A DNA stretch of 60,226 nt, counting the filler, from Jimgerdemannia flammicorona (lineage: Eukaryota), in NCBI GenBank assembly GCA_003990765.1. It is 3 parts of 3 records of this genome, joined end to end, with 100 filler letters (N's around TTAATTAATTAA, not from the genome) between each part and the next. Parts side by side here need not be neighbours in the genome. Positions count along the whole stretch, not along the records: positions 1 to 20,015 come from RBNJ01001780.1; 2 more parts are not named here. One strand, given 5' to 3'. Position numbers and translations under genes: made by a program. The number at the start of each line of letters is the position of its first letter. Positions within the stretch are counted from its first letter, which is position 1. Below are positions 309-45,351 of the stretch, piece after piece. Below the pieces are notes generated by a model. That model did no database searches. It worked only from the letters and a program-made list of their open reading frames with translations, and was not told the DNA's origin.

Positions 309-799
309 TTAGGAATATGAATCAAGAGAATTAGATATTTGATTATAGTATCTAAATCTAATTTCTAATATAGTATAGTCTTATAAATAGCAGTCATTGT
401 TATTTTGCAATTATTAAAGTTTTCATAAATGTTAAACTCTTTACAGATGTTGAAGATTTTGTAGATGTTAAACTTTTGACAATTATTAAAGTTTTAGCAA
501 ATATTAAAAGATTTAATACTTGTAAAAAGTAACTCATAAGAAATATAGTCATAACTTAGCCACCTTATAGCTAGCAAACTTATATAAATATTCCAGTATC
601 TAGAGTAAATAAACCTCAGATTGAAATAGTTAAAAAAAAAAAAAAAAAAAAAAGCAAAGGAACTAGTAAGTCTGTAGGCAGATACACTTCAAACTCACTC
701 ACTTCTATATTCTGAGAACTCTGCAGAGTCAAAGAAGATTAAGTTTCCAAGATACAGAAATCTGACATACTTCTATAGTTATATGTCCACTATATTACA
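309..799 (+). repeat. Gy-A 5' LTR (first ~18 bp missing)
   Basis: Aligns with 6521-7004; ends ...ttaCA at 799; TATA-like tatataaata at 581 and aataaa near 608; followed by a decayed PBS (tagtattcattgac, compare tggtgcccattggc in Gy-B). Confidence 0.9.
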
Positions 800-912
800 A
801 CTTAGTATTCATTGACTGATAATTTAAGACAAATCTCTCACTTTCAAGCTAAATAATAAACAATCATTATCACTTGAACAACCATATAAATTAAATCAGA
901 TATCTAGACAAG

Positions 913-3900
913 ATGGATATGAGATTACCAGTATTCTACAAATATACTTCAGATGAATCAATCATCATCTTTATTAATAATTTTGAGTAGTATGCTGTTA
1001 TAAGAACCTTGACAATAATATAACAAATAGTCCTTATGCCCTTCAGTCTCTGAGGTCCAGCAAGAGCAGCATTTGTAGCTATAATCTATGTGGAAAATAA
1101 TGACAATACAGTGCTAGTAGTATAAAAGATCTGGCTTCAAGCCACCTACTATATAGATGAGATCAAGCAAGCTCTAAAGAATTAACTCAATACAATCTGC
1201 TAAGGAATTAGTGAGGATCCAAATACATTCTATACCAGAATCTAATATCAGATAATTCTTGCAAATTATACTGACACTATCTAAGATCAAGTAGCTAAGA
1301 TAACTTTCATAAAAAAAGTCTACTCAGAAATAGTCTTAGCCATCTGCTCATTACCAATAGTCCTGAATTTACTACAAAAGATTACCTATGCCCAGTAATA
1401 CTAGATAGCCAGACACTCATAAGACTATATAATAAAAAGAGTTACTGAAGTTAGAATCAAAGTACTCAAGGCAACCAGTATAATCTCTACTATAGTGATC
1501 AATTAAAATACTCCTTAGTCAAGAGCTACTGAGTAGCAGAGGAATAGCAATTCTATAGAAGAACTTGCCAAGAAGTTCACTGAAATGACAGCCCACCTAA
1601 GAGATGTGATAAAGGAAATTAAAAAAAGAGACTGGTGCTCAGTTCAGAAATTTGCCACCACCTTAGACAAGAAGAGAGGTATTTGCTACACTTGTGGAGA
1701 AGAAGACCACTACTCATATAAATGTATAAGTGAAACCAAGTATAAGGTCTAGCCAAGCAATACTACTTGAAATAAGGAACAGGCCAATACTATCACCTTT
1801 GAGGAGATTGGAGAATCAGATGAAGAAGAATAGAAAGTCTACTCTACTGAGACTATCAAAAAAGATATCTGCAAGCAACCCTATAAGAGATCACCAGAGA
1901 GACCCAAGAAGAACTCTGTAGAAAAGCAGATAGAGACTGCTACAGAAAGTCAAGATAAAGAAACAGATCAAGATATAGAGCTAGAACAGGCTGTCCAGGA
2001 TATCATTTAAGGAACTACTCTAGCCAGTAAAAGAGAAAAGAAGAAAAAGCTTCACAAAACCAAGATCTTCAAGTATGATATTTTCAAGGACCTCAGCCAA
2101 TAAAAGCTCAATACAACCTTTGGCCAGCTGGCAGAAATACCTACATTTAGACAGCAAATAGATATAGACTTGCTGAGACAACCAAGGAGTAAGGTGAGAA
2201 GATAACTAAGGCCAATAATATTCAAAAAGACTTAGGAGAAGAGAGTGAAGACAATTGCAAGATCTCTGTCTATGTAATCTGTCAGATTGAAGATAGAATC
2301 TTTGAGGCCATCATTGATATAGAAGCAGAAGAATGTCTTCTCAGTAAGAAAGTAGCAGACTGCCTAAGTTGGAAGATTGAAGAAGCAACCAAGCTGATGT
2401 TTGTCACAGCAGATAGTATAAGAGCCACACCTCTGAGAAAGATCTGAGATATTTCTATTAAGTTTAGAGGAGTTACTATTTCAGTAGATGTGATCATGAT
2501 CAATACCACCAACTATGACATCCTCATTGGTAATTAGTGACTTTATAAAGCTAAGGCAATAATCAATCTGAATGCTCAGAAGATGCAGATTATCTACTGA
2601 GGTCAGAAAGTGTGAATTTTCATTAATGTCAATAAAGAAGTACTGCCTGAGATGGAGAAAGAAGAAAGTGAGCAAGAAGAAGCCTATATGATAATTACTA
2701 AAAAAAGAAGAAAAAAGTCAGATAGATTAGTAAAGAAGACTGGTGCAAGAAGATTGTAGAAGAATATATACCATAAAGAGTCTGTCTCCATAGAATCAAG
2801 ATGTATGTACTATAGTGAGAATATTAATGACTACTACTAATGTAGCATTGATATTAGAAAGATCTACTAGAAAAGAAGACAGAAGACTCTTGAAAAGCAG
2901 AAAGAGGAGGAGGAGAAAGAGGATAATGAACCACCAGCTCTCCTAGAAGACAGTGATAATGAAGAAGAAATTATGGTCAAGATTTGGAGGATCTACTCTG
3001 ATACAGTTCTACCAGAATATAAGTCAGAGAATATAATCAGAATGGATATTATCACAGTAGAAGAAACTATATGACAACTACCCTACTTACAACTGGTCTG
3101 GAGATGACTATTCTAAAGGACTATATCAGAATTCTCAAGACAAGAAGTAGCCTGGCTAGGAGTGAAATCACAATTGAAAGAGAAGTTATCAATTCAGATT
3201 ATATTGAAGAAATACTACTTATTACTAGGAACTATAATCCTATAATTCTATTTCCAATTAAGAAGAAGGACTGACTGGCACAGATGTTGATCTTTCCAGT
3301 TCTTTAGCCAAGGATATGGAAGTCAAGAAGTTGGAGAAAACAGAAAGAGAAAGGAAAGAATTTGGATCTATAAGAAGAGGAGTATTTATCAGTACTAAGA
3401 TTACTGAACTGGATCACAAGAAGGAGGAAACTATGAACAAGCATAGCTACACTATTGAAAATGAATTCCCACTCAAGAAGAAACTCAAGAAGATACTCTA
3501 TGAATTTAAGGATGTCCTAGTCACAGATTTCAAGAATATTAAAAGAAAGATTCTATACTACTATTATGATATAGACACAAGAGACACTGAACTAATCTAC
3601 TAAAAAACAAGGTCAATACTACTAATCTACTGTGAATAGCTTAGAGAAAAAATCAAGCAGATAGAAGAAGCCAGTATTATTAAAGAAGCCAGTAGCCCCT
3701 GGGCTTCACCAGTTGTATTAGTATCAAAAAAAGGAAGCAAGTCAGAAAAATTCACCCCAAGACTCTGTACTAATTACAGAAAGCTCAACTTAATTACCAA
3801 GAAAAATTGCCAACCATTATTCCTTATCAGTGACATTCTCATAATCTTGAGAGATAAAGTACAGTACTATAGAATTTTGGACTTATACTCAGGATTCTAC

Positions 3901-4900
3901 CAAATTGGCCTCACTGAAGCAGCAAGTGAAAAGTCAGCCTTCATCACTCCAGATGGAACCTATGTCTATCTGCAAATACTATTCAGAATGTACAATATCT
4001 CTATAAGCTTCTAGTAAATGATGAACAAAATCTTCTATTATAATATAGAAAGATGGATAATGGTTTATGTAGATGATGTTACATATCATCTATAGAAAGA
4101 TAGCTGAAGAACATCTGCAGTATATCCAGTAGATGATAGAAAAGCTAAGACAATATAGTCTTTATATCAAGCTCAAGAAGTGTAAGTTTGTGGAAATTAA
4201 GATTATCTATCTTGACCATATCATTAATTGAGATAGAACACACACAGACTCCCTCAAGATTCAAGCAGTAGCAGTATATCTAAGGCTCACCACAATTACT
4301 GAAGCCTAAGCCTTTATAGAACTCACCTCATACTACTAAAGATTTATCAGAGGATTCTCCAATATTGTAGGTCCAATCTACAAACTCAATAAGAAAGATA
4401 TCAAGTTTCAATAGACTGGCAGACAACAAAAAGCATTTAATGAACTTAAGGTCAGACTGACCCAGGCACCCATCCTCAGAAGACCTGATTGGACTCAAAA
4501 ATTCATCCTACAGACAGATATAAGTACTCAAGGACTAGGAGCAGTCTTGGCTCAGAAAAAAAACAAGGTAGAATATGTTATTACATATCTAAGCTGAGGA
4601 ATCTGAGGAGCTAAAAAAGAGTATAAATTTTATAAGTTGGAATATCTTATAGTTATCTAGACTGTAGAGAAGTTCCACTACTATCTGGTAAGAAAACACT
4701 TTACCATTCAGATGGACCACTCAGCTCTTACTTGACTACTGACCACTGAGTAACCCAAATGAATCTATGCTAGATAGATAATAAAGTTGCAAGCCTATGA
4801 TATAACTATTGTGCACTACCCAGAAAGAACCAATGCTAATGTAAATACTCTCTCATAGATACTCCAAAGGACTTCCAACCAATAAATCAATTATAAATAA
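913..4900 (+). pseudogene. Gy-A gag-protease-dUTPase-RT-RNase H polyprotein pseudogene
   Basis: CCHC knuckle CYTCGEEDHYSYKC ~1684; decayed protease IID(TG)A ~2310; dUTPase KTRSSLARSE ~3135; RT SPWASPVVLV and YVDD ~4066; RNase H FILQTD ~4502; many stops. Confidence 0.9.
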
Positions 4901-6083
4901 GGAGTTCTACTATAGAATCATCACCTATCTGAGATAGCAAAAGATATCCCAATATCTAGAAGAATAGATACAAATAATTATCAATAGAACATGGAAACAA
5001 TTCAAGACTAATAGAGAGATACTGAAGAAAGGAAAACTATTAGTTATATTTAAATACAAGAAAAAGTAAGTAATGAAATCAGTATATGAACTTGGCTATC
5101 TAGGAGAAACAAATACATAAGATAAAGCAAGAATAATAATGTAGTAGCCAGAAATAGAGAAAGATATCAGACAATTTGTCAAGATCTATAACAAATATTA
5201 GAAATAGAAACAAAACTAGCGAAATCAGACCCCAGGATCAGTATACATAGAATCAGTACCATTTGTATATATTGCAATAGATGTAATTGGCTCTCTACCC
5301 TTAACTTTGATTAGCAACTAATATATTATAGTCATTGTAGACCTTTTCATAAAATGAATAGAGATAGGATTTCTCAAGAAAGCTAATATATAGTCAATTG
5401 CTGATTTTTTCTATAAAGAAATTATCTATCAATTTAAGACCCCAGTACAAGTAACTATAGACAGAAGAATAGAATTTGTAAACCAGTTCTTTGAAATTCT
5501 CTACAAGAAGTACAAGATCCAGTATATTTGGACTACAGTATACTACTCTTAAGGAAATAGATAAGCAGAAAGGACTAATAAAACTCTTAAGAATATCATT
5601 GCTAAGATCTGCAATAACTATAAAAATTGAGATCACTATCTGTCAATAGCATTATCTGCTCTTCAGAATATCCAATCACAAAGTACTCATTTTATCTCTT
5701 GAGAGATACTATTCAGAGAAGAAAGTTCTCAAGAAACTCTATTATTCAATAGAGATACTATATAGAAATATATAAATACAGAGATATGAAGACTACATCA
5801 AATTAGAAAGAATGCTGAGAATTATATAACTAAGGTACAGATACTACAATGGAATAATACAGAAAAGATTCACAAGTCTCTGAAGATTATTAAGATAGGA
5901 GATAAAGTCTTAGTATATCAGAATATAATAGAAGCTTTATAGTTACAAAAACTGGAGTCTAAGTGGGAAGGACCTTATCTGGTATAAGATATAAAAGGAA
6001 CCACCTTTTGGTTATGAAAACCCTTAGCCACAATCATCCCTACTACCATTCACTGAAACTAACTTAAGAAGTATCATGGCTAA
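4893..6083 (+). pseudogene. Gy-A integrase (separate +1 reading frame)
   Basis: Starts at ATA (ATG in Gy-B) NKEFYY; HHCC remnant, IAIDVIG and AERTN catalytic motifs, KWEGPY; ends KKYHG-TAA at 6083; no chromodomain. Confidence 0.85.
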
Positions 6084-6507
6084 CTAATAGAATACTGCCA
6101 CAGCTCTCAAGATCATCAGTACTATACAGTGAGCTATAGAAAGACAATAGTATACTACTGAGCCACTGAATGGAAGAATCCTTTGATAGTATATAGAGTA
6201 TAGTTCAGATATACTTATCATAAATACATATCACACTTTAAAGCCTATCAGAACCAAATTGTACTAGGTCTCTTATGCTCAGATCATAATTACTGAATAA
6301 GTAGTCAATAAGATATTTAAGAATAATGAGTCAGCTCTAGCCCATCTTTGTAGAGTAGTTCCAGGAGACTTTGGATATATCAAAAGATACTACTGGGAAT
6401 ATGTAATGATACAAATTATATAGTACAAGGAGATACAAATTATAGAAGCTTAGAAGTTTGAATAGGATATTTCAGAGATGAATAATCTATTCAGAAGGAA
6501 GTTGTGA
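6076..6507 (+). pseudogene. Gy-A accessory ORF3 remnant (~143 codons), unknown function
   Basis: ATG overlaps the integrase stop; one frame to the LTR edge with only transition-type stops; contains VVNKIFKNNESALAHLCRVVPGDF, similar to the Gy-B LTR ORF. Confidence 0.65.
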
Positions 6508-7004
6508 TGGTTGATCAGAATTAGGAATATGAATCAGGAGAATTAGATATTTGATCACAATACCTAAATTCAATTTCTGATATAGTATAGTCTTACAAAT
6601 AGCAGTTATTATTATTTCACAATTATTAAAGTTTTTGCAAATATTAAACTCTTTGCAGATATTAAAGATTTCACAGATATTAAACTTTTGGCAATTATCA
6701 AAGTTTTAGCAAATATTAAAAGGTTTAATACTTGTAAAAAGTGACTTATAAGAAATATAGTTATAACTTAGCTATCTTATAGCTAGTAAACTTATATAAA
6801 TACTCTAGTATCTAAAGTGAATAAATCTCAGATTGAAATAGTTCAAAGCAAAAAGAAAGTAAAGGAACTAGTAAGCCTGTCGGCAGATATACTTTGAACT
6901 CACTCACTCCTATATTCTAAAGACTCTGTAGAGTCAAAGAAGATCAAGTTTTCAAGATATAGAAATCTGATGTACTTCTACAGTTATGTGTCTGCTACAT
7001 TATA
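6503..7004 (+). repeat. Gy-A 3' LTR
   Basis: Starts TG after purine tract agaaggaag; direct repeat of 309-799; terminal CA decayed to TA. Confidence 0.9.
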
Positions 7005-7254
7005 TTATATAGTGTAATAGTGACTCCAGAATGATGACATCAGCACAGGAGACAGCCTTTTCTTGCAAGTCACCAGATTGGAGCACAAGAAGATCATATG
7101 GCATACAAGATGAGCAATGATAACCAACTGTGAGTTATTGTGACCACAGTACAAGCATCTTGAAGAATATAAAAGAAGGATCAAGAAACTGCAGTAGCAG
7201 CAACCAACAAGAACCATCAATCCCAAAATAGCTCAAAGACTTACCATAAACAAA

Positions 7255-8073
7255 ATGCCTGCTGCCTGCCAAACCTCAAGATCAAGGAATTACCAAGGTA
7301 TCTCAGTCAAGGAAAGAATGTTCCAAGACATCAGGAGAGCCATGGAGACCCACTCAAGAAGGACTCCTAGTGTCAACCTGAGTACTACAGACCCTTATCA
7401 CTTCATTCTCTACTGCCATGAAATAGAAACAAGGATCACCATCGCTACCAAATACCTCCAAATGTGGCAGGAGTACAAAATAGGAAACCTCCTCTGTCAA
7501 GAGTTCCCACAGGCCAGTACCCAAGAGCTACAAGATGCCACTCCCATAGATATATGTAAAATAAGGACAGCTAAGAAGATTTATCAGATCTTCAGACATG
7601 CATCATGGTCGATCCCCAACTTGGAGTATATTAGAATCTCAGACTTCAGAGACCTGTCATCTTGCTGTATTAATGCACTAAAAGCCAGGGTGGCTACAGA
7701 AGTCCAGTTCACTATCACTCTCAACAGTGAAGAAGTAGAAGACTTCTGGCACCCTATCCTTCAGGACAACTCAGACCAATTCCTACAAGGATTGATCTCA
7801 GTATTCCAAGGCCCAAGCATCCAGGTTAGACCTCCCCAAGACCCCACATTTGTTCCCTATTTTGTGGAAGAGAACCTTATAGACTGGAGAGCTCCAGATC
7901 TTGTTCCTAATTTCCCCGCCACAGCCATATGTGATGACATCATCAGCGATGATGTCATCCCATGTGACATTGAAGTATGCGAAACGTGCAACCTACATGA
8001 CAAGTTTGCAGATCTCATCTCCTTCAGTGATGATGATGATAAAGCCCCTATGATCGTGAACTTTCTGCTCTAA
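7255..8073 (+). CDS. 272-aa accessory protein of unknown function inside the putative LTR U3
   Basis: Uninterrupted ORF; the same frame continues upstream to the LTR edge through transition-type stops; similar to ORF3 remnants of Gy-A, Gy-C and Gy-D; acidic C-terminus. Confidence 0.7.
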   Translation: MPAACQTSRSRNYQGISVKERMFQDIRRAMETHSRRTPSVNLSTTDPYHFILYCHEIETRITIATKYLQMWQEYKIGNLLCQEFPQASTQELQDATPIDICKIRTAKKIYQIFRHASWSIPNLEYIRISDFRDLSSCCINALKARVATEVQFTITLNSEEVEDFWHPILQDNSDQFLQGLISVFQGPSIQVRPPQDPTFVPYFVEENLIDWRAPDLVPNFPATAICDDIISDDVIPCDIEVCETCNLHDKFADLISFSDDDDKAPMIVNFLL

Positions 8074-8085
8074 AAGTTCTTTGTT

Positions 8086-8215
8086 ACACTGGATAATGCC
8101 AGCACTGGTATTCTTATATAACACTAGATAATGTCAGCACTGGTATTCTGAGGTGATGCAAAATTATTCCAGCACCGGTATTTTGATGTGACACTAAATA
8201 ATGCCAGCATCCTGA
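8086..8215 (+). repeat. About four degenerate tandem copies of acactggataatgccagcactggtattc upstream of the TATA box
   Basis: Directly visible; enhancer-like position in the LTR. Confidence 0.75.
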
Positions 8216-8557
8216 ACCTATACAACCATCAGTGCCAGTCCTGGAACTTAGTAGTTTTAGTTATTGGAATTTATATTTAACTTTATATCTTAGCAACTAT
8301 TAAATTATATTTTATATAAATACCCCTCTTATTTCCTCTGAAATAAAGTCAGTTCCTCTCAGTACAATATACACACTTCCTTGTAAGCAATCTAAGAGAT
8401 AACAAGACAGTTAAAGATAAGAAGTTTGAGGACTATAAGACCTTAGGAAGGTACTCTAATAAGAACTTGCTTATAACAAACTTAAGTTAGTCTAAGAGAT
8501 ATACCTTGAAGAGAATCTGGTATATTTGAAGGACTCAGCGACTACTACATGACAACT

Positions 8558-8571
8558 TGGTGCCCATTGGC
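8558..8571 (+). promoter_or_regulatory. Gy-B primer binding site (tRNA not assigned)
   Basis: tggtgcccattggc 3 nt after the terminal CA; TGG pairs with tRNA CCA. Confidence 0.7.
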
Positions 8572-8674
8572 TAGTGATTCAAGATGAATCCCTCACTTTC
8601 AAGCTGAAAAATGAACAACCCCCACAACAACTACCCTGACTACAAAAGTCACCCCTGCAAGAATTCAAGACAAG

Positions 8675-11600
8675 ATAGAAATGTATCCCCCCACATTCTA
8701 TGGATATACTACTGAAGAGTCAATCCTGACCTTCATTGAAGACTTTGAACAATTTGCTGCTATATGAGCCCTTGGTGTGGATGCTCAATTGGCCCTTCTA
8801 CCAGTTAGCCTCAGAGGACCTGCTAGAGATAAGTTCAATACAGCCACCATTGCTGATGCTGGTGCAGCTAAACTTACCAATATGAAGGTCTTCCTCAGAA
8901 AAATATATTATACTGAAGAGATCAAGTAAGCTCTCAAGGATCAACACAATATTATCTGCCAGAGACTTAGTGAAGATCTCAACTTATTCTATACCCGAAT
9001 TTGCCACCAGATTGTCTTGGCTGGCTATGATGACTGCCTCAAGGAACAAATAGTGGATTCAACCTTCCTCAAAGGAATTCACCCTGAAATTACCCTAGCA
9101 ATCTGGTCTACTCTAGCTGCACTGACCTTTGATCAGAAAGTGGTCTTTGCACAGAGATATTGGACTACCAGACATCCTGCCGAACACTCAATAGAGAAAA
9201 TAACTGGTATCAAGATGAAGCCATCAAAGCCAACTAGTATCTTATCTACCACAGTCATAAACAGACAACCAACTCCACCTACCCCCAAGATAGCCAAAGT
9301 TGATCCAGTGGAAGAACTCACCAAGCAGTTTGCCAAGATGACTGTACACCTTGGTGATGTTGTCAGAGAAGTCCAAAGCACTAACAGGAGACCAGTGCAG
9401 AGATTTGCAGCTACTACAGAAGAATACAATATCACATACTTCAGATGTGGAGAAGAAGGCCACTATGCAAAGAGTTGCATAACTAAAATAAGATACAAAG
9501 CCCAACCAAGCAATGCTAGCAGAACCAGAGAACAAACCAATGCAGTAGTCATTGAGGAGATTGGTGACACTAATGATAAAGAATACTATGAGGAGCTCAA
9601 ATTCTACCCTGCTACTGAAGGTACCAGAACCTGGTCCAAGCCCTATGACAAGAAGAGCAACAGCAAGCCAGTTGGAAGACCAAAGAAGACCCCAGCTGTC
9701 ACTATTCAAAGTAAGACCTAATCTGAGGAGATTGATCAAGACATGGAGTTAGACGAAGCTGCCCACCAAATTATTGAAGGCACTACTCCAGTCTCAAGAG
9801 AAAGCAAAAGCAAGAAGGAACAGAAGCTGCATAAGACCAAGATCCACCAGTATGATATCTACAAGGACCTCAAGGAACAGAAGGTCAATGCCACTTTTGG
9901 ACAGCTAGCTGAAGTCCCTGCCTTCAGATAGTAGTTGAGAGTAGGACTTGCAACTACTGCTAAGAATCAAGAGTACAAGATTGTAAAAGCTCACAATGCA
10001 CAAGAAGAATCTGAGAACTCAGGTGAAGAATCTGAAGATTAGTGCAAGACATCAGCCTATACCCCCTACCAGATCGAAGACTATATCTTTGATGCCATCA
10101 TTGATACTGGTGCTGGAGGATGCCTCATGAGTAAGAAGGTAATTGACTATCTAGGTTGGAATATTGAAGAGTCCACCAAGATGGTCTATGTTACAGCAGA
10201 TGGTATATGAGCTACCCCCCTTGGTAAAATCTGAGAAGTCTCTATCAAGATAGGAGGAGCTACCATCCCAGTAGATGTGATTGTTACAAGCACCACCAAC
10301 TATGACATCCTCATTGACAACCAATGGCTTCACAAGGCCAAGGCCATTATTGACCTCAATGCCCAGAAGATGCAGATCAACTACAGAGGAAGAAAGGTAC
10401 AAGTCTCTATCAATGTCCACAAAGGAGTCCTATCAGATATGGAGGAAGGAGATGAAGATACAGAGGTCTTCATGCACTCAGTGAACAAGAACAAGAGCAA
10501 GACACCCAAGCTCACAGATGAGCAGTGGTATAACAAGATCATTGATGGGTATGCCCCTCAAGGAAGATGCCCCCATGGTACTAGGATGTACTACTCTGAA
10601 CACCTGAATGACTGCTGGCTCTGTATCAGTGAAGTCAGGAAAATCTGCCAATAGAAACATGAGCAAGAAGCTGCTGAAGCAAAAAGGAAAGCCAAAGAAG
10701 ATGGCCAGCCTCCAGAGCTTCAAGCTAACAGTGACAATGAGGAGGAACAAGAATCAGACATCACCCTCAAGGTCAAGAAGTTTCACCCTGAAGCCAAGAT
10801 CCCAGAATATAAGACTGAAGGAGCTATAGAAATGGACCTTGCCAGCATTCAAGATGCTACCCTCAAACTACAGACCACCACCCTACTTGGCACTGGAATT
10901 GGAGTCAAGTTACCAGAAAACCATACTGGAATTATCAAGACCAGGAGCAGTCTGTCCAAAAGTGAAATCTCAGTTGAAGGAGGAGTAATTGACCCTGATT
11001 ACACTAGCGAGATCTTCCTCATAGTCAGAAATCACAACCACACCACCCCCTTTGAAGTCAAGAAGCATGACAGAATTGGCCAGATACTGATCCATGAAAT
11101 CAAGAAGCCCAAGATCATAGAAGCCATCAAACTTATCAAGACCAAGAGAGGAGAACAAGGCTTTGGATCTACTGGAAGAGGAGCCTATGCCGCAACTAAG
11201 ATTACTGAACTTGAGCACAAGAAAGACAAGGACCAGAACAAGCACACATATATCATTGGAGAAAACTTTCCCCTGGAGGAACAACTTCTCAAGATCCTGT
11301 ACCAGAACAAAGGAGTACTTACTACAGACTTCAGGAATATCCACAATCAAGAACCCAAGTACTACTATGAAGTTGATACTGGCGATACCAAGCCCATCTA
11401 CCAGAAAGCTAGACCCATACCACCTGCCTACAGAGAGTGGCTGCAAGCCAAACTCAAGGAAATAGAAGAAGCTGGAATCATCAAGCAAGCTATCAGCCCC
11501 TGGGCCTCGCCCATTGTCCTAGCCCCAAAGAAAGGAAGCAAGCCTGGAGAGTTTGCACTAAGACTCTGTATTGACTATAGGAAGCTCAATGCTATCACCA

Positions 11601-12697
11601 AGAAGAATAGGCAGCCCTTGCTGAATATTCAAGAAATCCTTACCACCCTTGGAAGCAAAGCCAAATACTACACCACCTTGGATCTATTCTCAGGCTTCCA
11701 TCAGATCAGTCTCACTCAAGATGCCAGTGAGAAATCAGTCTTCATCACACCTGATACCACTTATATCTATCTGCAAATGCCATTTGGAATGTGCAATGCC
11801 CCAGCAAGTTTTTAGTGAATGATGAACAGAGTCTTCAGTAATGAGATTGGAAAATAGCTCTTTATCTATGTTGATGATGTGATCATCTTCAGCAACACTG
11901 CATGAGAACATATCAATCATATACAACTAGCCCTCAAGAGGCTCAAGGAGCATGACCTCTACATCAAGCCCAAGAAATGTAAGTTTGTAGCTCAAGAAAT
12001 TGCCTACCTAGGACACCTCATCAACCAGACCAGATTTCACACAGACCCCATGAAGATCAAGGCTGTTGTAGTCTACCTGAGACCCAGAATAACCACAGAA
12101 GTCTATGCCTTCCTTGGACTGGCCAGCTACTACAGAAGGTTTATCAAAGGATACTCCAACATTGCAGCATCTATTTACAAGCTACTGAAGAAGGAGACCA
12201 AATTTGAATGGACCAAGGAGTGCCAAGAAACCTTCAATAAACTCAAGACCAGATTGACCCAAGCACCTATCCTCAGAAGACCAGACTGGAACCTAGAATT
12301 CATCCTGCAGACAGATGCGAATGCTATAGGACTTGGAGCAGTCCTAGCTCAGAAGAAAGATGGACATGAATATGTCATCTCCTATGTAAGCTGAGATACC
12401 TGCAGAGCAGAACAGAACTATGAGTTATGCAAGCTTGAATACTTAGCAGTAGTCTGGGCAGTAGACAAGTTCCACTACTACCTAGCTGGAAAACACTTCA
12501 CCATTCAAACAGACTATTCTGCTCTTATCTGGCTATTCCACACTCTGAACCCCAAAGGAATATATGCCAGATAGATCTATAGGCTGCAAGAGTATGACTG
12601 TACTGTCAAGCACCACTCAGGAAAGACCAATACCAATGCCGATGCACTCTCAAGGATACCCCGAAACACCCCCATCAAGATTATTCAACATGAATAA
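8675..12697 (+). pseudogene. Gy-B single-frame gag-protease-Cys/His module-dUTPase-RT-RNase H polyprotein
   Basis: ORF pieces 9017, 9743, 10277, 10832 and 12050 share one frame; knuckle FRCGEEGHYAKSC; IIDTGAGG; SPWASPIV, LDLFSGFHQI, MPFGMCNAPASF, YVDD; FILQTDA, NADALSR. Confidence 0.93.
10768..11175 (+). other. dUTPase domain between protease and RT (Gy-B)
   Basis: Five trimeric dUTPase motifs: (A)xxMDL, RSSL, GGVIDPDYTSEI, DRIGQ, RGEQGFGSTG. Confidence 0.92.
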
Positions 12698-13172
12698 GGA
12701 GCTATACTATGGATTAATCAGCTATCTTGAGCAGCAGAAGATGCCCAATCACCTCAAACCCTGGACAATCACCATCATCAACCAGACTTAGAAACAGTTT
12801 GAATTAGATAACACTATACTCAGAAAAGGAGAAAAGCTAGTAATACCCAAACACAAGAAGTATCAAGTAATAAAGGAAGTATACAAGCAAGGACACTTAG
12901 AAGGAACCAACACATATGATAAGGTAAGAAGAACCATGTGGTGGCCCAAGATGGAAGAAGACCTGTGCCAATTTGTCAAAGGGTGTGATAAGTACCAAAA
13001 ACAGAAACAAGATCAGCAAGACCAGACATCTGGGTCATCAAGAATTGAGCCTATTTTCTTCCACCACATCACAATAGATATCATTGGACCACTACCAGTA
13101 ACACTATCAGGAAACCACTATATTATAGTTATTGTAGACCTCTTCACCAAATGGATAGAGGCAGGAGCATTA
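12690..13172 (+). pseudogene. Gy-B integrase N-terminal part (separate +1 frame, own ATG)
   Basis: MNKELYYGLISYL; WWPKMEEDLCQFVKGCDK; ITIDIIGPLP; VDLFTKWIEA; then LINE sequence. Confidence 0.88.
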
Positions 13173-16100
13173 GTGTATCTTTCTCCAGTAACATTCAGAT
13201 TATACAACCTTTGGAAGACACTTACAACATCATTTTTGGAGAAAAGAGACTAACAACATGGCAACTGACAGACAATCTGAGGTGTGTACTGGGCAGGGTG
13301 GCACAAGCGCTTTCAAATGGCAGCAGATAAGGAGGGGCCCAGGCCTGGGGGGGAGCATGAGGGGGCTGCTGGCAGGAGGATGTGGAAGAGAAGAGTCTGG
13401 GAGAGCAAGCTTTGTGGAGATGGTGAAGGGGAGACAGCAGGTATCAGGGCTGGAGGCCTGGCTGAGAAGGGGCAAGGAGACTGAGAAGGTGGTAGTGCAT
13501 GGTAGAGTAGCCCTTGGAAAGGGGGGCAGTAGAGCTGAGGGAGTAGTGGCTGGGGGGAGTGTGACTGCTGATGGTGATGGAACTGCTAATTTGGAAAAAA
13601 ATCCAGATATGATAACTGTTAGTAAGGCTAAGCAGCTGAGGCTTAGAAGACAAGGAGATTTGGCGGATGGCATGACAGGCCTGGTGGTGGCCCCATTACT
13701 CAAAAAATTGATCTCAACATTCATGGTTACACTATACTTCTGGGGCTTAGTAGTGATGGTGAAAATGGTACTAGGGCTTATTACTAAGTAGATAGCAGGA
13801 GCCATGTCAGTGAAGTTTTTGAAGGGACTGGAGGGTGTGGAGGTGGGTTTTGAGGAGGCTGAGCCACTGGAGGAGGCATTGAAGGTCGGGTTGGTGGTTG
13901 GGGAGGTGTGTGTTCTGATGGCACAGTATCTGAAATGGAATCCGAGGGTGGTCCAGCTGCTGGTGAAAGGAGTGTCCATGGTGACAGCAATAGAGACAAG
14001 AAAGAGAGTTGAGGATGTCATAGCTGAGTATAGAGAGGTAGTGGATATTGGATTCAGGGTCTGGGAAGGGACCTCACTTAGGACTGGGGATATAGATGTG
14101 AGGATTCAGCTGGCTGGGAAAGAAGCTACTGGGAAGGCAAGGGACTGGCCTTTGGTGATGGTCTGGAGAGTAATCTTATATAAGGTGACAAGGGTGAAAG
14201 GAAGTGAAAAGGAGGAAGAGGATTTATTGGAAGCACTGAAAGAATTGGATGGTGCCATGGAGTAGCGAGCAAAGGCTTAGAAGGCTTTCATGGAGTCGAT
14301 GCACCTGGTGGTGGTGGATGGAAAGAGGATTCGAGTGGACAAGGTGCAGTGAGAAAGGGCTCAGGGGCATAAGCGACAGAAAGATCTGCTGGCTAAATTG
14401 GAGACCAGACCACAGGAGGATGTGAGCAAGATGATGGGTGCAGAAGGGGCCAAAGCGAGTATCTGGGCTAGTGAGAGGAGTGGAAATGCCAGGGAGGAGA
14501 CAGGGAAGGCAAAGGAGGTGAAGATTGTTGACCTATATGCTAATAGCACCTTGGAGGTTTGGGATGAGGTCTGGGAGGATTCTCCCACTCTCTCTCCTCT
14601 TATCAGGCAAGGCCCAGCTTCCAGGAACAAGATAGTGGAGAATGTGACAATGCTGGGGACTCATTGGGTAAAATTCAGCATTCCAGAGGTAATGGATGGG
14701 GAACATGTGGTGGTAGCTGGGGAGGAGGAACTGGTGGATATCCCAGAGGTATAGGATGAGGCTACGAGTGCTGGAGCCAACACTACAATGCTGGAGAGTG
14801 GGAGGCCAGTGACCCCTGGAGGGAAGGAGGTGGGGAACCTTCTTTGGATGTGTAGGATGATGAATAACCTGGTGGCAGAAGAGTTGGGAGAGGTGGACTT
14901 GCAAGTGATGGGTGATAAGCACTGGGTGCAGATTTTGCAGGGGGATAGAGTGATGATGGCACTGAAGGCAGAAATTCTCATGGTGTATCTGGAGGAAGAA
15001 GGGTATGAGGTGGACAAGGAGCAGGAGGTGGAGATGGCCATTGTCGCTGGAGAGAGAGCTGAGTACTGTTGGAACAAGTATCATAGATTGCAGCTTTGGC
15101 AGGAGACTTGCATTGAGTACCAGGAGGAGTTTGAGGAGAAGGCGGATGGGGAGATGAATGAGCTGTTGGCTGGTTTGGAGGCTCAGAGGGCTGAAGAGGA
15201 GGAGGTGATGGCAGAACATAATCTGAATATGGCATAAGAGGAGATGAGCATAGAGCAGTAGAGATCAACTGATAACAAATCGTATTTCATTATGAACAGT
15301 ACAACTAATATTTTTTTTATGAATGTGAATGGGCTATGGAGCACTATTAGACATAGGAACATTTTTATTTGGCTGAAGGGATTGGAGGCCAATCTCTTCC
15401 TCTTGCAGGATATCAGGTGCAAGAATGACAATGATAGGATAGAATAGACAAAGGAATGGGGTGGCATGGTGATTTGGAATGGCAAGATCAGGATTCTGGT
15501 CTGGAAAGGCAGAGAGGAGATTAGAGATGTGAGAAGTTGGGAGAAGAGGCTGGTCTGGGGTAAATGGATTCGTGCAGGCTGGGAGCTAGTTACAGTTGGC
15601 TCCTATTACTGCCCTGCCATCAGGGGGGAGTGGGTAGATTGGGTAAAGAGTCTCTAGGAGAGTGGGATCCTGGCAGAGGCTGGAGTAGATATGCTTGGGG
15701 GAGATTTCAATATGGTTCAGGATGTACAGATGGACAGAACTGATGGAGAATGGGGTGCTGAAAGCAGGAGTGGGGGGCTGGTGATATGGAAGGAAGTCAA
15801 AAGACTAGGAGCACTGGTGAATGCTAGTAGGGAGTACTGGGGGGATAGGAGGATATATATGCATTGGGCTGAAGGCCTGGGGACAAGGATTGACTGGGTT
15901 CTGATGGCCACTTATTGGGGCCGAGATGTTTAGAAGTCACTGGAGGTGGAATGGTGTCTATGGTCGGATCACTGGAGTCTTTTGAGACAGGGGTACTTTG
16001 GGGGAAGTGGGGATGGGCCTGGACATTAGCACCTAAATTTCTCTTTGTTAGATGATGAGTCTCGGTGGGAGGAGTGGGCTAAAGACATTCAGCTGAGGGT

Positions 16101-17173
16101 GGAGAACTGGTGGCAGGAAGGTGCCTCAATTGGGGTTCAGTGGATGAGGATGAAAGAGATGGCCAGAATGTACTGGAGTGAGGCTGGCAAGATGGCAGGG
16201 AAGCAGCAATGGCAGAGAGTGTACTGGGCTTCTACTAAACTGGCTAGGCTTCTGGATAAATGGGCAAGACTGGTGATAGTGGAGGGAGAGGAAGACTGGA
16301 GAGTAATGAGGGCAAAGATAGAGGTTGGGGAACTACAACAGGTGCTGCAGGAAGAGGAAGAGGTGAGGGTGCAAGGCTTAGTGGCATGGCTTTGTTGGCA
16401 GAGGCTGGAAGAAGGGGAGAGGCCTTCCAAGTTTCTCTTGAGGACTCTTAGGGTGAGAAGAGTATAGCAATGGTGGGAAGGGGTACTTGACTCTGATGGT
16501 GTACTAGTACATGGTATACAGGATATTCTCAGATCACTGAAGGAGTGATGGAGTGGATTGTGGAGTGAGGAGGAGGGTGGAGTGGATGATACTACCATTG
16601 ACCAAATATTGGAGGATTGGCACCCACTATAAGTTGCAGGACTAGGTGACCTGGTGATGCCTGTAAAGGAGGATGAGATCCACTAGGTTCTTGCCACAAC
16701 AATCTTGGGAACAGCACCTGGGGAGGATGGCCTACCCTGGGACTTCTGGAAGTAAATGGTTGGAGTCCCAGGTGTGATGGGGGAGTTAATGGTATTGTGT
16801 AACTCTATATTGCAGACAGGGAGATGGGTGGGAGAGCAGGATCTTGGGCTGGTGATACTGCTTTATAAGAACAAAGGAAGGCAAGAGAATTGGAAGAACT
16901 GGTGGCTGATAATGTTGTTAGATATGGACAGAAAGTTGGTAACTAAGGTGGTAGTCATGAGGCTACAGAAGGTAGCCCAGCAGATTGTAGGGGTTGAGAA
17001 GAGGGGATTTGTGGGTGGTCAGCTCATTAGGGATAGCATAGCCTGGGTACATGGAGTTATTGAAGGGGCTAGAGCCTGTGGACTGGATGGGCAACTAGTC
17101 TTCTTGGACTAGGAGAAGGCTTATGACTGAGTGCAATGAGTCTGGCTGGTGAAAGTATTGGATAGAATGGGAG
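13173..17173 (+). mobile_element. LINE copy A (L1/Tx1-like): intact 5' end, ORF1, APE endonuclease and start of RT; interrupted by hAT
   Basis: 5' motif atctttctccagtaacattcag shared with other copies; ORF1 from ATG 13258; ORF2 from MNSTTNIF at 15292; LGGDFN, SDH, APGEDG, LD*EKAYD. Confidence 0.92.
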
Positions 17174-17269
17174 TAGTGCTCTGAATGAGTCAATTCAAAT
17201 CAAATCTGGATTTGATTCATCACATGACAGTTTGATTTGAATCTCAAATCCAAAGCCATCCAAATCAAC

Positions 17270-21692: not shown

Positions 21693-22414
21693 TTATATAT
21701 ATTTATTTGTTACTATTTATAAAATCTAATATGTATAATATATAGTACTAATATTTATTATTTTAATTATAATTTATATTATACTAAATAAAAATAAATA
21801 AAAAATTATTATTATTAATATTTATAAATTTTAGTTTTTTCAGATTTATATATAATAACTTAAGATCTCTTATATGAGAGATCAGATAGTCTTAAATTAA
21901 AATATTTGACAATCATAAGTTTAGAGTAAAAGGTCTTAAATTAGAAATATCAGAAAACCTTTAAGTGGCTATTATAAAAAGAGATAATTTTATTGAAGTT
22001 ATATAGATCACATATTTATATATTACTAATAAATAATATAAAACTAATAAAATAGCATATATTATATACTAATATATTGAGTTATCATTTCAATACTATC
22101 AATGAATAAGAATATATAACTTAAAAAAAAGCTGCAATTATATAGTAAAAATACAAACTAGAGTATAAAGTAATACAATACATATAAGCAAAAAACTAGA
22201 ACTATATATAACTTAGAATTATGTATATCTATAAAGGAATTTTCAAATGTTAAAAAGTGTTCTAAAATATCTGTAATATCTGAAATACTCACAAAAGGCA
22301 ATATATATAATCTGCTCATAGATAAAGATATATAATATATTAAGAGAGACTTTTTACAGCTTTAAATATATTCTAAATTATCTGAATACTGGCATACTAT
22401 ATGTGAAATCCATT

Positions 22415-25400
22415 TTTATTTTTAGTTTTTTTTTTTATTTTATTTTTTTTTTTTTAATTTAATTTTTTTTTTTTAGTAACTTGGACTTTGCTATTTATTA
22501 CTAGTCTATTAATATGGTTACAGTATTATCTCCTACTACCTAATCCCCATAAGACAGCCCCCACTTACCTTTTCACAGATGAAGACCACTTTCTCACCCA
22601 CTACCCCAACTCTCTCTCTACTCTGGCTATAGATTTTCTCTACTAAGTAATGCTTCTGACTACTCTGCAAACCCCAACCATACCACTAGCCCATTATAGT
22701 GTCTTTCATAAGCCCTTGCCATCTCAACAGCCATACCCCCAATCCCAATCTCCTTCCATCCTCAAAAACAAATAACCAGCAATCTGTTAGCCTCACTCAA
22801 ATTGCCAAAACTCAACCTAAGGTAAACCACTCCTTCTCCACCCCCCTGACCAATCTATCCCTCAAATCCTCCCACCAACCCCATGCACCATCCTCTCTAT
22901 ACACTATATCCAATCAATCCACAACAGCTCTCCAAAAGTCACTAAGTACCTTATACTCTTTAAGCCAATATTCAGGTACTGCATATATCCCTCTTGCTGC
23001 CCTACATTGTGATACTCCTTACAGTCAAAGCATCCTCTCTCAATAAGATGACTCAAGTGGAATTTAAGCATAACATTCCTCTGCAGTATATGCCACCAGA
23101 CCACTCAGTACTTTGGTGGCAGCCACCTCCTTACCTCAGTACTCCAGGCCCAGACTTCATGCTAGTTCCACTCCTCTCTGATATCTATCAACTGCTATCT
23201 GCTGGGCCACAGATTCTGGCCTGGCCCCCTCTGATATTTGATCCCATCACCAATATTGAATTCAACTAAGAGGATGCCCCCTAACAACACTTGGTTCCAT
23301 CTCCACATTACTGGGCCCTAAGGCACCTCTTCTTCATTTCTCTGTCAGCATATTCCAATATAGTGTACTCCCTTCACTATTTTCCACCAGATGCCTTTGT
23401 ACATACAGTGTTCCAAAGCCTAACTAAGGATGGTAAATCTCTTGTAGAGCCTCTTGGTGAGGACCTTATCTCCCAGACCTTCTGTAACAGAGAAATCCAG
23501 CCACCCCCTCTCAGCTCTACTGCTCTCTTTAATCACCATACTCTCAAGCAGCACAGTCTCTTTAAAAAGTCAACCAGCTCAAGGCCTCCTCTTAACATCA
23601 GTAAGGACAAGACCTCCCAGCTGATCTGACTCCTTCTCTCAGCCCAGATCTACCCCTTGGTCAGTTTCATTAGTCTCTTCACCACCCAGGCTGGAAAGTC
23701 CAGGTAATAGGCCAGATACCACAACTTGGGCAACCAGCAGATGTTCAAAATCAAAACATGTCCCATTAAAGACATGTGGTGACCACCTCAACTCTACAAG
23801 GTTTCCTCCCAGATCACTACTCTCTGTTCTCACAAAAGTTTTGGTAGGACTGACCTATATACTGACAAATAGATACCCAAGTACTGCACTGCCTCTCCAG
23901 TAGAGACAATTGTTCCAATGACATCCCCTCACACCAGACTATTGTCTAACACTATTGTTTCATACTTATGCTAATTGAGTTTAGCCCCTGAGTTCACTTA
24001 ATACCACTCCATATCTTCTTGAGCTCCTTTACATCAGCAATGGATCCCAGGCTGACCACTATATCATCTGCAAAGGCACCAACTTTCCACCCAATTCCAA
24101 AGACTGATAGCCCCACTATCTTCTATCTAATCCTATCTATTCAAGGTTCTAGAGAAAGAGTATACAGAATAGGGGACAATGGGTCCCACTGGGGCACACC
24201 TCTACCCAGAGAAAATGCTATCCCCCTATGCCCATTATATATGAGTGCCACCTGACTCTATTTCAGTAGACTAACCATTACTGACTAGAACTAGTGAGGG
24301 ACTCTAATCCTATTCAATACCTTTGCCAACCAGACTCATCTCACCCAGTCATACACCTTCTCCTGATCTAGGAAGACCAGTTGCCCATCCAGTCTACAAG
24401 CTTATGCCCCTTCAATTACTCTATGAACCCAGGCTATATTATCCCTAATAAGCTGGCCCCCTACAAAGCCCCTCTGTTTAACACCCAATACTTGCTAGAC
24501 CACCTTCTGTAGCCTTGCAACCACTACCTTAGTTACCAATTTCCTGTCCATGTCTAGTAGTATCATTGATCACCAGTTTCTCCAGTCCTCTCTCCTTCTC
24601 TTGTCCTTATAAAGCAGCATCATCATCTCCAGATCCTGCTCTCCCACCCATCTCCCTAACTGTAGTATCAAATCACACAAAGCCATCAACTCACCCAGTA
24701 CCTCCAGAACTCCCACCATCTTCTTCCAGAAGTCCCAGAGCAGACCATCCTCCTCAGGTACTATGCCCAGCTTTGTTGCAGCAAGAACCTGGTGGATCTC
24801 CTCCTCTTGGACTGGCAATACTCAGCCACCCAACCCTTTTATCTATGGGGGATACCAATCCTCCAATTTCTGGTCAATGGTAGCAACATCTGCCCACCCT
24901 CCTCCTCACTCCATAAATCACTCCATCACTCCTTTAACAATCCAAGAATACCTTGTATACTATACACCAGCATATCATCAGAGTCCAGTACTTCCTCCCA
25001 CCTATGCTTCACTCTCCTTGCCTGAAGGGCCCTTGTGAGATACTTTGAGGGTCTTTTCCCTTTCCCCAAATCTTGTCACTAAAGCCATACCAAGCTCTGC
25101 ACCCTTGCCTCCTCCTCTTCCTGCAATACCTGTTGTAGTTCCCCAACCTCTATTTTCGCCTACAATAATCTCCAATCCTCTCCTCTCTCTAGAGTCACTA
25201 GCCCTGCCCAATCTTCCAATAGTCTAGCCAGTCTACAGAAGCCCATCTCACTCTTTGCCTCCTGTATTTCTCAGCCTCCTTGCCAGCCTCACTCTAGTAG
25301 ACCCTGGTCATCTTCTTCATCCTCATCCAATAGACACCAACTGGGGCACTTCCTGACTCTAGCCTGTTACTCTCTGTTGAATGTCCTCAGCCCACTTATT

Positions 25401-31758: not shown

Positions 31759-34700
31759 TATAAGAGAATTAGTAAGTATATACTCCATAAAGATATATTC
31801 TAAGTATATATTGTGCTAAGCAAATAGTATAATATAGTCAGATGATATAAACTCTTAGTATAGTATAGTTACTCATACCTACCACACTTATAATTAGCCA
31901 GGATACTGTTAATCTGTGTTCTGAAGATATACCTGTATCTGGCAGATATACTCATGTCCTGTAGACACACTCAAACATTACCAGAAATAGTAAATTTATA
32001 ATTATCCAGATAGTAACCAGATAGTAATCACAATATATAAAATACCCCAGAGACAAGCATGAATAAACTTCAGTCTGAAATATAAACCAAAGTAAAGGCC
32101 AATTGTCTGGTATACTTAGAAGGAGAAACTTATCAATATGCCATTGCTAAGTATTTGTGAGCTTGGTTCCCTTTCTACTCTCAATCACTTTCCAATATAA
32201 AGAATGATTCTGTTTTTGATTTACTTTCCAGATAAGCCTGAAGAAATCTGCCAAGTTCAAGGAAGAACTTTGCTATCATTTAAGTCATCCACTGTTTTTC
32301 AGTTATTTACTGTTATTCTCAAAGTGCCTACTATTCTTGTCACAAGCCAGCCTTCTGATTTAACTTTGTAGTAGAGTCAGTCTACAATATAACTCCATGC
32401 AAATGAAGCCAGTCTTTGATATAACTTGCTAAAATCCACCATCTGAGCTACCCAAGTTATCTGAGTTATTGAATTATCTGTCATCTAAGTTATCTGAGTT
32501 ATTAAGTTATTCAATATTCCCAGAAGAGCTGATTAGGAAGAATCTGCATTAACTGGGTAATCCACACTATCTGAGTTATTTCCCAGAACCCTGCTGATTT
32601 AGAGAGAATCCACAACATCTGAGCTATCTAAGTTATCTAAATTATATGCTACCTGAGTTATTCATCCATTCCCAGTGAGCGCGATTTAGAAGAATCCATA
32701 CTACCCTCAATAACCAGAAAGTTCAATTCAGAAGTATCTATGCTAAATCAAGTTATCTACCAAATCTGCATATGGAATATCTCCAAGATTATCATACTAA
32801 GATCATCACCCAGAAAGCATCATGCTATATAGAGGTCATCATGCAGAAATTGCATATGGAAACTGCTAATTTGCCAGATGGCCTGTACTATACTCCAAAT
32901 CGCTGCTATACCCAAGAAACCATCCCAATAAGGAAATTGCCAAAATCACTTGCAGATATCCAGCTTTGACTATTATACCACTAAACACTAAGGGCCTCAG
33001 GAATCTTACAACATTTTGTTGCTTTTTGACAAAGTAACTAGTGACTCAAGGCAAATAACATCAACTCCCAACCTTGTAATTTGTCCACATTGAGTTGGGT
33101 ATGTTACATTTAGGGGCTCAACTGGGAAGATTTTAAAATCAATATGATTTTTTAGCTTACAAGAACCTATAGTTAAACTGGATACATTTGATACAACATC
33201 AATCTCTATCACTTCAGGAGAACTGATTATCATCAGAGAGAGAAGTAATTACTTCAAGACTTGCCAACTACCCAGCATCAGAAGGATCCCAACCAGAAGC
33301 CAGTACTATACACAATCCTCAACTAGTACTGACAGACTTATTACAGGACCAACCAGATCAACCAGATTATATAGGTAGCTCTGCCAGAGTTTTTGATGAG
33401 CTAGCACATCAACTTAAAGATCTCATTGAACAAGCTCAATTTCCCACAAGAGACCCACCAATCTCACCCATTGATCCCCTACCACTAGCTGTCATAAAAC
33501 AGAAAGATCAAGAAATAGCTCCATCAAGGATACCAGACCTATCCTATCTCATCTACAATCTCCTACACCATCCTTGGGATATCCAAGTATCTCTAACTCC
33601 AGCAAAAACTCAGAAAGCAAATCAGAATCAGTACTAGAATTAGAATCAGAATCAGAATCAGATTCAGCACCAAGATCAGAACCAGAACTAGAACCAGAAG
33701 ACAGTGACAACAAAATGGCCACCCTATTGCCAACCTTTGCAGGATACTCTGAAGAAGATCCAAGAGAATTTCTGGATGGAATAGAGAAATCACACCTCTA
33801 AAAATCTTACCCCTAAAAGGAAAATCACCATCTACAAGGCCAAACTCAGAGAACTAGGCAAAGAAATCTTCATCTGAGTAAGCAATGATCCAAACTCAGA
33901 TCTTGGAGCAGCCATTATTGTAGCAATCACTTGGCTAGCAGAGTATTGAGTCATGACTCACTGGTATATCAAGAAGTATGCAGGAAATTCGACCTGCCAC
34001 AAGGCTCAAGAATCCATCATAGAAATGAAGATGAATCTTGGAGAATTCCCCAGGGCATTCTTCACAAGAATCCAGAAGAGAATATATGTAGCTGAGTTCA
34101 ATGCCACCAACCAAGTCATCAAAGGTCCAATGACCTTCATGAACAGAATTCTCCCAAAATATTGCCCAGTATGTCCACACCCTAGGTATCAGAATGTCTA
34201 AAGAATAAGTAGATATAGTCCAGGAATTCATTAATATTAGATAAGGAATTACCTGGAGTGACTATGACAAGAAGGATGACAATGAAGATATCCTGGTCAA
34301 AGCTCTGCGAGGACTCCTCTAAGGAGAGGAAAGATCTGAAGAAAGAAGTCCAACCAAAGAAGAGAAGAAGGATAGGAGCAAAATTCAAGACCTTAGTTCC
34401 AAGTTGGACTGATTGGTTAGATAAATTGAAAAACTTGGCATATATAATAATTGGAGTAATCAAGACAACAGAGGATATCCACCACAGAGGAACCAAGGTT
34501 ATCCACCTAGAGATAACTAGAGCTACCAATAAAAAGAAAGAAGATACCCTATCCAAGACAGAACCTAAGTCCAATACTTCCACTGTAGACAATTTGGACA
34601 CTATGCTACTGAATATGACAACAAAAGAAGTGAGTGAAGAGACTCAGAACCACCAAACCAAAGGAATGAAATCCAGTACAAGAAGACTGAAGCCTATTCT

Positions 34701-45348: not shown

Positions 45349-45351
45349 ACT

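Follow-up and report, generated by a model that had tools for sequence, protein, structure and literature searches.

A stretch of 60,226 nucleotides (nt) of DNA from Jimgerdemannia flammicorona (NCBI GenBank assembly GCA_003990765.1), composed of three parts joined by 100 filler letters and referred to below as the window, was analyzed by self-comparison and Pfam scans, which revealed that nested retroelements make up the window. One of these elements, Gy-B, begins directly after a complete element, Gy-A, in the first part (positions 1 to 20,015, from RBNJ01001780.1), and the region at its 5' end contains an intact open reading frame (ORF), ORF-B. Over positions 8930-13250 the Pfam matches of Gy-B follow the order zf-CCHC (E 0.0039, below the cut-off), RVP_2, dUTPase (3.7e-25), RVT_1, RT_RNaseH_2 and Integrase_H2C2; this is the domain order gag, protease (PR), dUTPase, reverse transcriptase (RT), RNase H and integrase (IN), and the element that carries ORF-B is a Ty3/gypsy (Metaviridae) element with a dUTPase. 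We consider it probable, at roughly 0.6, that ORF-B is a gene of an orphan family located in the U3 side of a long terminal repeat (LTR) of one dUTPase-bearing Ty3/gypsy lineage. The features at this locus are as follows.

7013 to 8554 (+): 5' LTR of Gy-B (LTR-B), about 1.54 kb, beginning with TGTAATAG and ending with TGACA, and thus having TG..CA termini
7168 to 7175 (+): TATAAAAG box, about 80 nt 5' of the ORF-B ATG, a putative promoter element
7235 to 7254 (+): conserved 20-nt leader AAAGACTTACCATAAACAAA, abutting the ORF-B ATG
7255 to 8073 (+): ORF-B, intact from ATG to stop, 272 amino acids (aa), with 291 codons from stop to stop
8093 to 8209 (+): enhancer-like tandem repeat of a 35-nt unit (3.3 copies), downstream of ORF-B and upstream of the second TATA box
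8315 to 8347 (+): TATAAATACCCC followed about 16 nt on by AATAAA, the presumed main promoter and poly(A) signal of the LTR
8555 to 8576 (+): primer-binding-site-like sequence, ACTTGGTGCCCATTGGCTAGTG
8577 to 13176 (+): internal region of Gy-B, with gag (CCHC), protease, dUTPase, RT, RNase H and the integrase zinc finger

An intact frame of 272 aa had been proposed at this site in an earlier reading of the same DNA (the original prediction), and the frame was confirmed from the ATG at 7255 to the stop at 8073. Five of 172 word-sharing candidate proteins matched ORF-B at E < 0.01, with identities of 61-83%, and the 271-aa protein P0002 aligns with ORF-B from its MPAA start through its NFLL end. 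A HMMER search of 1.84 billion representative proteins returned six proteins at E <= 0.001, including sequences with 39%, 33% and 28% identity; the longest of the HMMER relatives is 342 aa, none has a known domain, and no longer or cellular relatives were found among these representatives of all lengths. One of the six matches, P0011 (E 9e-5), is a low-complexity repeat protein and was excluded from alignment A3. Metagenome contigs yielded a single ORF-B-like locus, L001, with an intact ORF of 291 aa that is 36% identical to ORF-B, and the search of viral contigs yielded none. Even where identity falls to about 30-36%, the relatives retain the frame as well as its MPA start and LNFL end. Between ORF-B and L001, the proportion of nonsynonymous differences (pN) is 0.44 and that of synonymous differences (pS) is 0.76, the latter being saturated, and differences at codon positions 1, 2 and 3 number 140, 100 and 155, with the second position the least changed. 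The TATAAAAG octamer is likewise found 73-80 nt 5' of the ATG in L001, and the 20-nt leader is nearly identical there, whereas the DNA of the ORF is only 59% identical. Altogether, these comparisons indicate that ORF-B is in all likelihood a genuine conserved gene of an orphan family. Among relatives, the part encoding the acidic tail (7874-8007) is the most variable portion of ORF-B and contains in-frame indels in the protein alignment.

Other copies of the sequence bear on the boundaries of LTR-B. On soil-metagenome contigs carrying other copies, similarity stops exactly at 7013, and a purine-rich, polypurine-tract-like sequence precedes this position (four contigs in run X5 and two in run X2), as expected of a polypurine tract preceding a 3' LTR. 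Contigs of other copies also end their similarity at about 8555 (run X3), and the joints of the X5 contigs have a Gy-A-type LTR end fused to 8545-8552. None of the 15 runs found was listed as RNA; X3 is at a guess an RNA run, and its contigs covered the LTR and not gag, from which no conclusion is drawn. Directly 3' of LTR-B lies ACTTGGTGCCCATTGG, for which transitions are the sole differences from the sequence that follows the 5' LTR of Gy-A. Over its final roughly 475 nt, LTR-B is weakly collinear with the LTR of Gy-A (LTR-A; E 0.015), and it looks composite: an ordinary LTR that has, at its 5' edge, a module of 1 kb holding the ORF. The AATAAA of LTR-B is at 8342, and an arrangement of TATAAAATACCC with AATAAA is present in three LTR fragments of the D type (57944-57955 on the minus strand, 32036-32047 and 40663-40674); on this basis, the LTR-B and D-type families seem to share a core-promoter design. 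ORF-B is positioned downstream of the LTR start (7013) and upstream of the TATA/poly(A) core at 8315-8347, with predicted U3/R boundaries. Because it lies 5' of the LTR core promoter and within 7013-8554, ORF-B would be inside the LTR, on the U3 side, and would consequently also stand at the 3' end of the element, in the 'nef position' that the original prediction had assigned to it. The 3' LTR and the target-site duplication (TSD) of Gy-B are outside the window because a long interspersed nuclear element (LINE) cuts the element at 13177. That 7013-8554 is an LTR carrying ORF-B is a well-supported assignment, deduced from these boundaries and signals.

The ORF-B protein has a basic N-terminus, several helices, a conserved core at about residues 140-215, and an acidic-hydrophobic tail. 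The first 45 residues contain 8-10 K/R in winB, P0002 and P0001, 7 in L001 and 4 in P0010. The last 60 residues contain 14-19 D/E versus 2-4 K/R in winB, P0002, P0001 and L001, and in the six B-family proteins tabulated they contain 15-21 hydrophobic or aromatic residues, the tail being studded with F, L, I and W. The maximal 19-residue Kyte-Doolittle mean is 0.64-0.94 in the five proteins measured, indicating that there is no membrane segment, and the proposed lack of a signal peptide and membrane anchor was thereby confirmed. The features of a retroviral or errantiviral env protein, a signal peptide together with a transmembrane anchor, were thus not found, as hydropathy is low and no env family was matched in Pfam. 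Searches of the ORF-B family against Pfam returned no family at E <= 5 except a sub-threshold match to ATG5_HBR in 3 of 10 members. The composition of ORF-B would fit an acidic-activation-domain regulatory accessory protein, and it makes a role as a transactivator plausible.

Several observations weigh against this interpretation of ORF-B. A sequence search of the PDB with the B profile gave no matches, and with no relative in Pfam or the PDB, what is proposed about function is drawn from composition. The AlphaFold2 (AF2) model of ORF-B contains helices at a mean predicted local distance difference test score (pLDDT) of 45.8, and at this low confidence no fold was assigned. Self-comparison revealed no second copy of LTR-B in the window, so that the LTR status of 7013-8554 is inferred. 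Compared with its relatives, the window copy of ORF-B differs by many transitions and may therefore itself be non-functional. The database relatives are gene-caller predictions on contigs of 720-2375 nt, and broken copies are consequently under-sampled. Finally, L001 shows neither LTR ends nor gag-pol, so that an LTR context of the distant relatives is conjectural; the sole hint of an LTR is a 27-nt near-identical stretch between L001:10-36 and window positions 44446-44472, in the U3 of another element, Gy-C (E 1e-4). The intactness of the window copy is itself only mild evidence for a gene: the gag-pol region of Gy-B contains about 17 stops or shifts in 1446 codons and is interrupted by the LINE at 13177, and at that disruption rate the probability that 272 codons remain open is about 0.04.

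The mode of sequence decay bears on the state of the window copy. In LTR elements of the window (e.g., 309-7002, 8555-13176 and 57436-58910), the observed/expected (o/e) ratio of CpG is 0.00-0.19, with TpG and CpA in excess, and the two Gy-C LTRs show 66 differences, of which 65 are transitions. Repeat-induced point mutation (RIP) of the Neurospora type was rejected as the mode of decay on the basis of the CpG o/e values and a (CpA+TpG)/(ApC+GpT) ratio of 1.2-1.5. The decay is instead by deamination of methyl-cytosine at CpG sites. The window ORF-B is an old copy eroded by this process, and its open frame may partly be a matter of luck.

A palindrome, TGATG[AT]CATCA, was also found to be enriched, with nine matches in the window versus 2.0 expected, and none of 100 shuffles reached nine. 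Copies are located as follows.

7032 to 7042: palindrome copy at the start of LTR-B
7932 to 7960 (+): pair of palindrome copies
44639 to 44664: palindrome copies
49490 to 49515: palindrome copies

The pair of TGATG[AT]CATC sequences at 7932-7960 is inside the C-terminal coding region of ORF-B, where it is read as DDIISDDVIP. Both Gy-C LTRs have a like palindrome pair, 5' of a TATA box, and the pairs of LTR-B and of the Gy-C LTR (LTR-C) are in the same reading frame, DDVI. The palindrome is a candidate cis-element.

The original prediction had described ORF-B as the intact version of an accessory gene shared by four LTR families, Gy-A, Gy-B, Gy-C and Gy-D, on the basis of short peptide blocks aligned without gaps. 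The elements and the quoted peptides are located as follows.

About 310 to 7004: Gy-A, a complete element with LTRs at 309-797 and 6521-7002, 490 nt long and 85.7% identical (self-comparison)
6295 to 6318 (+): quoted A peptide, a chance match within the 430-nt interval that separates the end of the integrase (about 6090) from the 3' LTR (6521)
7390 to 7494 and 7567 to 7593 (+): quoted B peptides
43890 to 50201: Gy-C, with LTRs of 1.46 kb that are 91.7% identical, the TSD AAAAC and the polypurine tract AAGAAGGGGAGAG
43890 to 45348 (+): 5' LTR of Gy-C, with its partner LTR at 48742-50201; the C blocks of the original prediction are at 44073-44273
44073 to 44177 and 44247 to 44273 (+): quoted C peptides
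57436 to 58905 (-): Gy-D remnant, starting with a C-terminal integrase motif and flanked on both sides by LINEs
58264 to 58755 (-): ORF-D, broken copy; its family is a separate 172-aa ORF from the integrase end, with no demonstrable LTR around it
58677 to 58573 and 58503 to 58477 (-): quoted D peptides

In Gy-C, the dUTPase precedes the protease and Pfam scans detected neither RT nor integrase; Gy-C is a non-autonomous deletion derivative. It sits inserted in another element, of which an uninterrupted copy is present at 33076-35435. The integrase genes of Gy-B and Gy-D are both sites of LINE insertion. The LINE family (Exo_endo_phos and RVT_1) is represented by at least five copies or fragments, at 13177-17174 (+), 22413-28238 (-), 36706-39964 (+), 51516-57435 (-) and 59051-60226 (-); its ORF1 encodes 655 aa without any Pfam match, its strands are strongly skewed in G versus C content (GC skew up to about 0.48), and an A-rich tail is present at 58940-58910. 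Rfam and tRNA scans of the window gave no matches.

Six-frame translation showed that all seven quoted peptides are present where they had been placed; the ungapped similarity claimed for them, on the other hand, is no better than chance for the C and A matches. The B1 and C1 blocks share 4 of 35 identities with a BLOSUM62 score of -5, a score reached by 761 of the 119,339 other 35-mers of the window, and D1 and C1 share 3 of 35 with a score of -28; B1 and D1 share 8 of 35 with a score of 7, reached by 60 of 119,339. With tblastn, the best non-self match of ORF-B in the window has an E of 0.28 and is at none of the sites of the original prediction. Smith-Waterman comparisons, each with 500 shuffles, were not significant for the B family versus C (201/500 shuffles), B versus D (70/500) or D versus C (76/500). 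When the six-frame translation of the window was searched with the B profile, ORF-B itself was recovered (8e-138), a sub-threshold match was obtained at 58605-58474, in the D block (E 6, score -6.4), and Gy-A and Gy-C gave no match; the D profile found its own site only and missed ORF-B. Among 202 candidates, none is a relative of the translated Gy-C frame, and this frame contains about 11-12 stops, versus 9 in another frame of the same LTR, and is thus not the frame with the fewest stops. LTR-C contains no supported ORF. In Gy-A, there are only 430 stop-riddled nt between the integrase end and the 490-nt LTR. The Gy-A and Gy-C matches were accordingly rejected as parts of a shared gene, being at chance level. 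The idea of a conserved, largely helical, non-membrane ORF of an LTR element survived these analyses, and its extension to all four families did not, as no significant reciprocal similarity was obtained with the B and D profiles or with hhalign. Selection preserving the frame was apparent for B, and for D in other copies, but not for C, in which all three frames are interrupted, by 9-19 stops each. The LTRs of the families, which had been called unrelated, are not wholly so: the tail of LTR-B weakly resembles LTR-A, the D region resembles LTR-A (E 1.4e-8), and LTR-B and LTR-C have the paired palindrome in common.

The frame in Gy-D is a different matter from those in Gy-A and Gy-C. It has three intact relatives of 137-172 aa with 60-68% identity, and the window copy is broken by in-frame stops. 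ORF-D begins, in another frame, at the end of the integrase and stops a short distance before the LTR start predicted from the similarity to LTR-A; this position, between the integrase end and a presumed LTR, is that of a classical post-pol ORF3. The protein has helices and, after them, a tail with 17-20 D/E, its maximal 19-residue hydropathy is below 1, and its AF2 model has a pLDDT of 52.8. A PDB search with the D profile gave four matches with E values of 0.3-3, and in the ESM Atlas both ORF-B and ORF-D gave generic matches only (<= 0.90). The make-up of ORF-B and ORF-D is, by analogy, that of nuclear regulators with acidic activation domains. Gy-D contains a second orphan ORF3 family.

Could all four frames nevertheless descend from one ancient helical accessory gene that has decayed in three of the families? 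The spacing of the blocks is similar (24 residues in B and 23 in both D and C), the D block is the sole sub-threshold match of the B profile in the window, acidic tails end both the B and D proteins, and the palindrome pairs of LTR-B and LTR-C are in the same DDVI frame. In hhalign, B versus D gave a P of 0.073, or 0.04 with intact members only, and 5 of 300 column shuffles reached the observed score; the AF2 secondary-structure strings, taken from low-confidence models, agree best at an offset of +14, at 87% of 142 residues, against a mean of 50% (standard deviation 13%) over 151 offsets, and +14 is also the register of the hhalign alignment. The hhalign probability, however, is just 0.76%, and adding AF2-derived secondary structure did not raise the B-D score (P 0.29, with 76 of 150 block shuffles reaching it). 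Pairwise tests of four B-family proteins against the D-family protein P0015 were not significant (70-325 of 500 shuffles reached the observed score), and ORF-B was missed by the D profile. A common gene must also contend with the stop-laden C frame that has no relatives and is not the one with the fewest stops, with an A block located in 430 nt of stop-riddled sequence next to an LTR of just 490 nt, and with a D ORF that precedes its presumed LTR where the B ORF is inside one. We regard a gene common to the four families as very unlikely. A narrower proposal restricts very distant homology to B and D; an ORF3 located between pol and the polypurine tract would later have become part of the LTR in the B lineage. 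Sequence and secondary structure agree marginally, the two elements are gypsy elements of the dUTPase type or akin to it, and resemblance to LTR-A is seen in the 3' part of LTR-B as well as in the D region, so that the order from ORF to LTR would be alike and only the LTR boundary would differ. The same statistics are nonetheless not significant, the extra conserved core of ORF-B, residues 150-215, is missing from D, and the LTR start in D is a guess. This scenario is unlikely, as is B-D homology in general, and it is probable, as part of the interpretation preferred here, that the ORF3 of Gy-D is a different one, or no more than a very distant relative of ORF-B.

ORF-B might alternatively be a passenger that does nothing for the element, either a captured fragment of a host gene or a frame that is open by chance in an LTR. 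The lack of a known domain, the poor confidence of the structure model, the mutated state of the window copy, and a probability of openness that is not extreme would all be compatible with a passenger. Relatives at 28-39% identity, however, keep the length, start, core and tail of the protein, pN is below pS, the TATA box and leader are conserved, and longer or cellular relatives are absent from the 1.84 billion representatives. A passenger origin is accordingly improbable, and ORF-B is better read as an orphan-family gene in the U3 side of LTR-B.

If ORF-B is such a gene, an ordinary LTR of roughly 475 nt, like that of Gy-A, may have gained a module of roughly 1 kb containing the ORF at its 5' edge, and this could have occurred when the polypurine tract shifted upstream and thereby brought a post-pol ORF3 within the LTR. 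The TATAAAAG box of the module, together with the conserved leader, would drive a short mRNA from every copy of the LTR, and this mRNA would terminate at the LTR poly(A) signal. This mRNA would encode an accessory protein that returns to the nucleus and acts there as a regulator, raising transcription from the LTR, most likely as a transcriptional activator; an RNA-export factor of the Rev or CERV kind, or an anti-silencing factor, would be less likely alternatives. A bolder combination, in which LTR-B is a self-contained gene, every LTR including solo LTRs expresses a trans regulator that feeds back, possibly via the TGATGNCATCA palindromes, and ORF-B and ORF-D are two forms of one ancient helical ORF3 family that moved into U3, is a long shot.

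Extra ORFs in LTR retrotransposons are known and mostly unexplained, and solo LTRs are usually treated as dead remnants. Should the placement of ORF-B within the LTR be correct, solo LTRs could stay coding and possibly regulatory, and ORF-B would offer a tractable case in which to look for a transactivator or anti-silencing factor encoded by a retrotransposon. As regards annotation, two orphan protein families of soil metagenomes, those of ORF-B and ORF-D, belong to retrotransposons.

Accessory ORFs of other retroelements resemble ORF-B in different respects. Among dUTPase-bearing gypsy elements, fungal chromoviruses have 'additional ORFs' and LTR elements of bdelloid rotifers have ORF3s; as described in the accessible parts of these reports, the dUTPase is located between PR and RT or before PR, and the extra ORFs are family-specific, are in some cases of unknown function or of the coiled-coil or transmembrane (TM) type, and are gained and lost by lineage (PMC2864245, PMC5408684). 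These extra ORFs are internal and downstream of pol, like ORF-D; unlike ORF-B, none is described in the accessible parts as being inside an LTR. The gypsy-type element Cer1 of C. elegans encodes CERV, which the accessible portion of its report presents as a novel non-enzymatic nuclear accessory protein needed for the handling of genomic RNA, made from a spliced mRNA of the internal region, whereas ORF-B is in the LTR; the likeness is one of likely role (PMC10309623). A phrase search of the literature returned no retrotransposon ORF inside an LTR, the matches being a review of mouse mammary tumor virus (MMTV) and an unrelated paper on Tto1, although such a search is not proof of absence in print. 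To our knowledge, an ORF housed within the LTR itself is a textbook case for MMTV only. The superantigen (sag) ORF of MMTV is in the U3 of the retroviral LTR, and Sag is a type II membrane glycoprotein. Like ORF-B, sag is a complete ORF on the U3 side of a long LTR (over 1.3 kb), a placement that gives each end of the provirus, and also solo LTRs, a copy. Sag is a membrane protein, however, whereas ORF-B has no hydrophobic segment and no Pfam match, and MMTV is a vertebrate retrovirus whereas Gy-B is a gypsy-type element with a dUTPase. With neither the features of a membrane protein nor a match to any family, ORF-B does not belong to the Sag family; by position, MMTV sag is its closest analogue. 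Foamy-virus Tas/Bel1, which ORF-B resembles in its likely role, and other retroviral transactivators are small, non-membrane accessory proteins encoded 3' of pol and overlapping U3. Pfam and PDB searches gave no sequence or fold evidence of kinship between Tas/Bel1 and ORF-B; the two are nevertheless alike in their position, in possibly having a promoter of their own, and in a C-terminal acidic region that, in ORF-B, resembles an activation domain.

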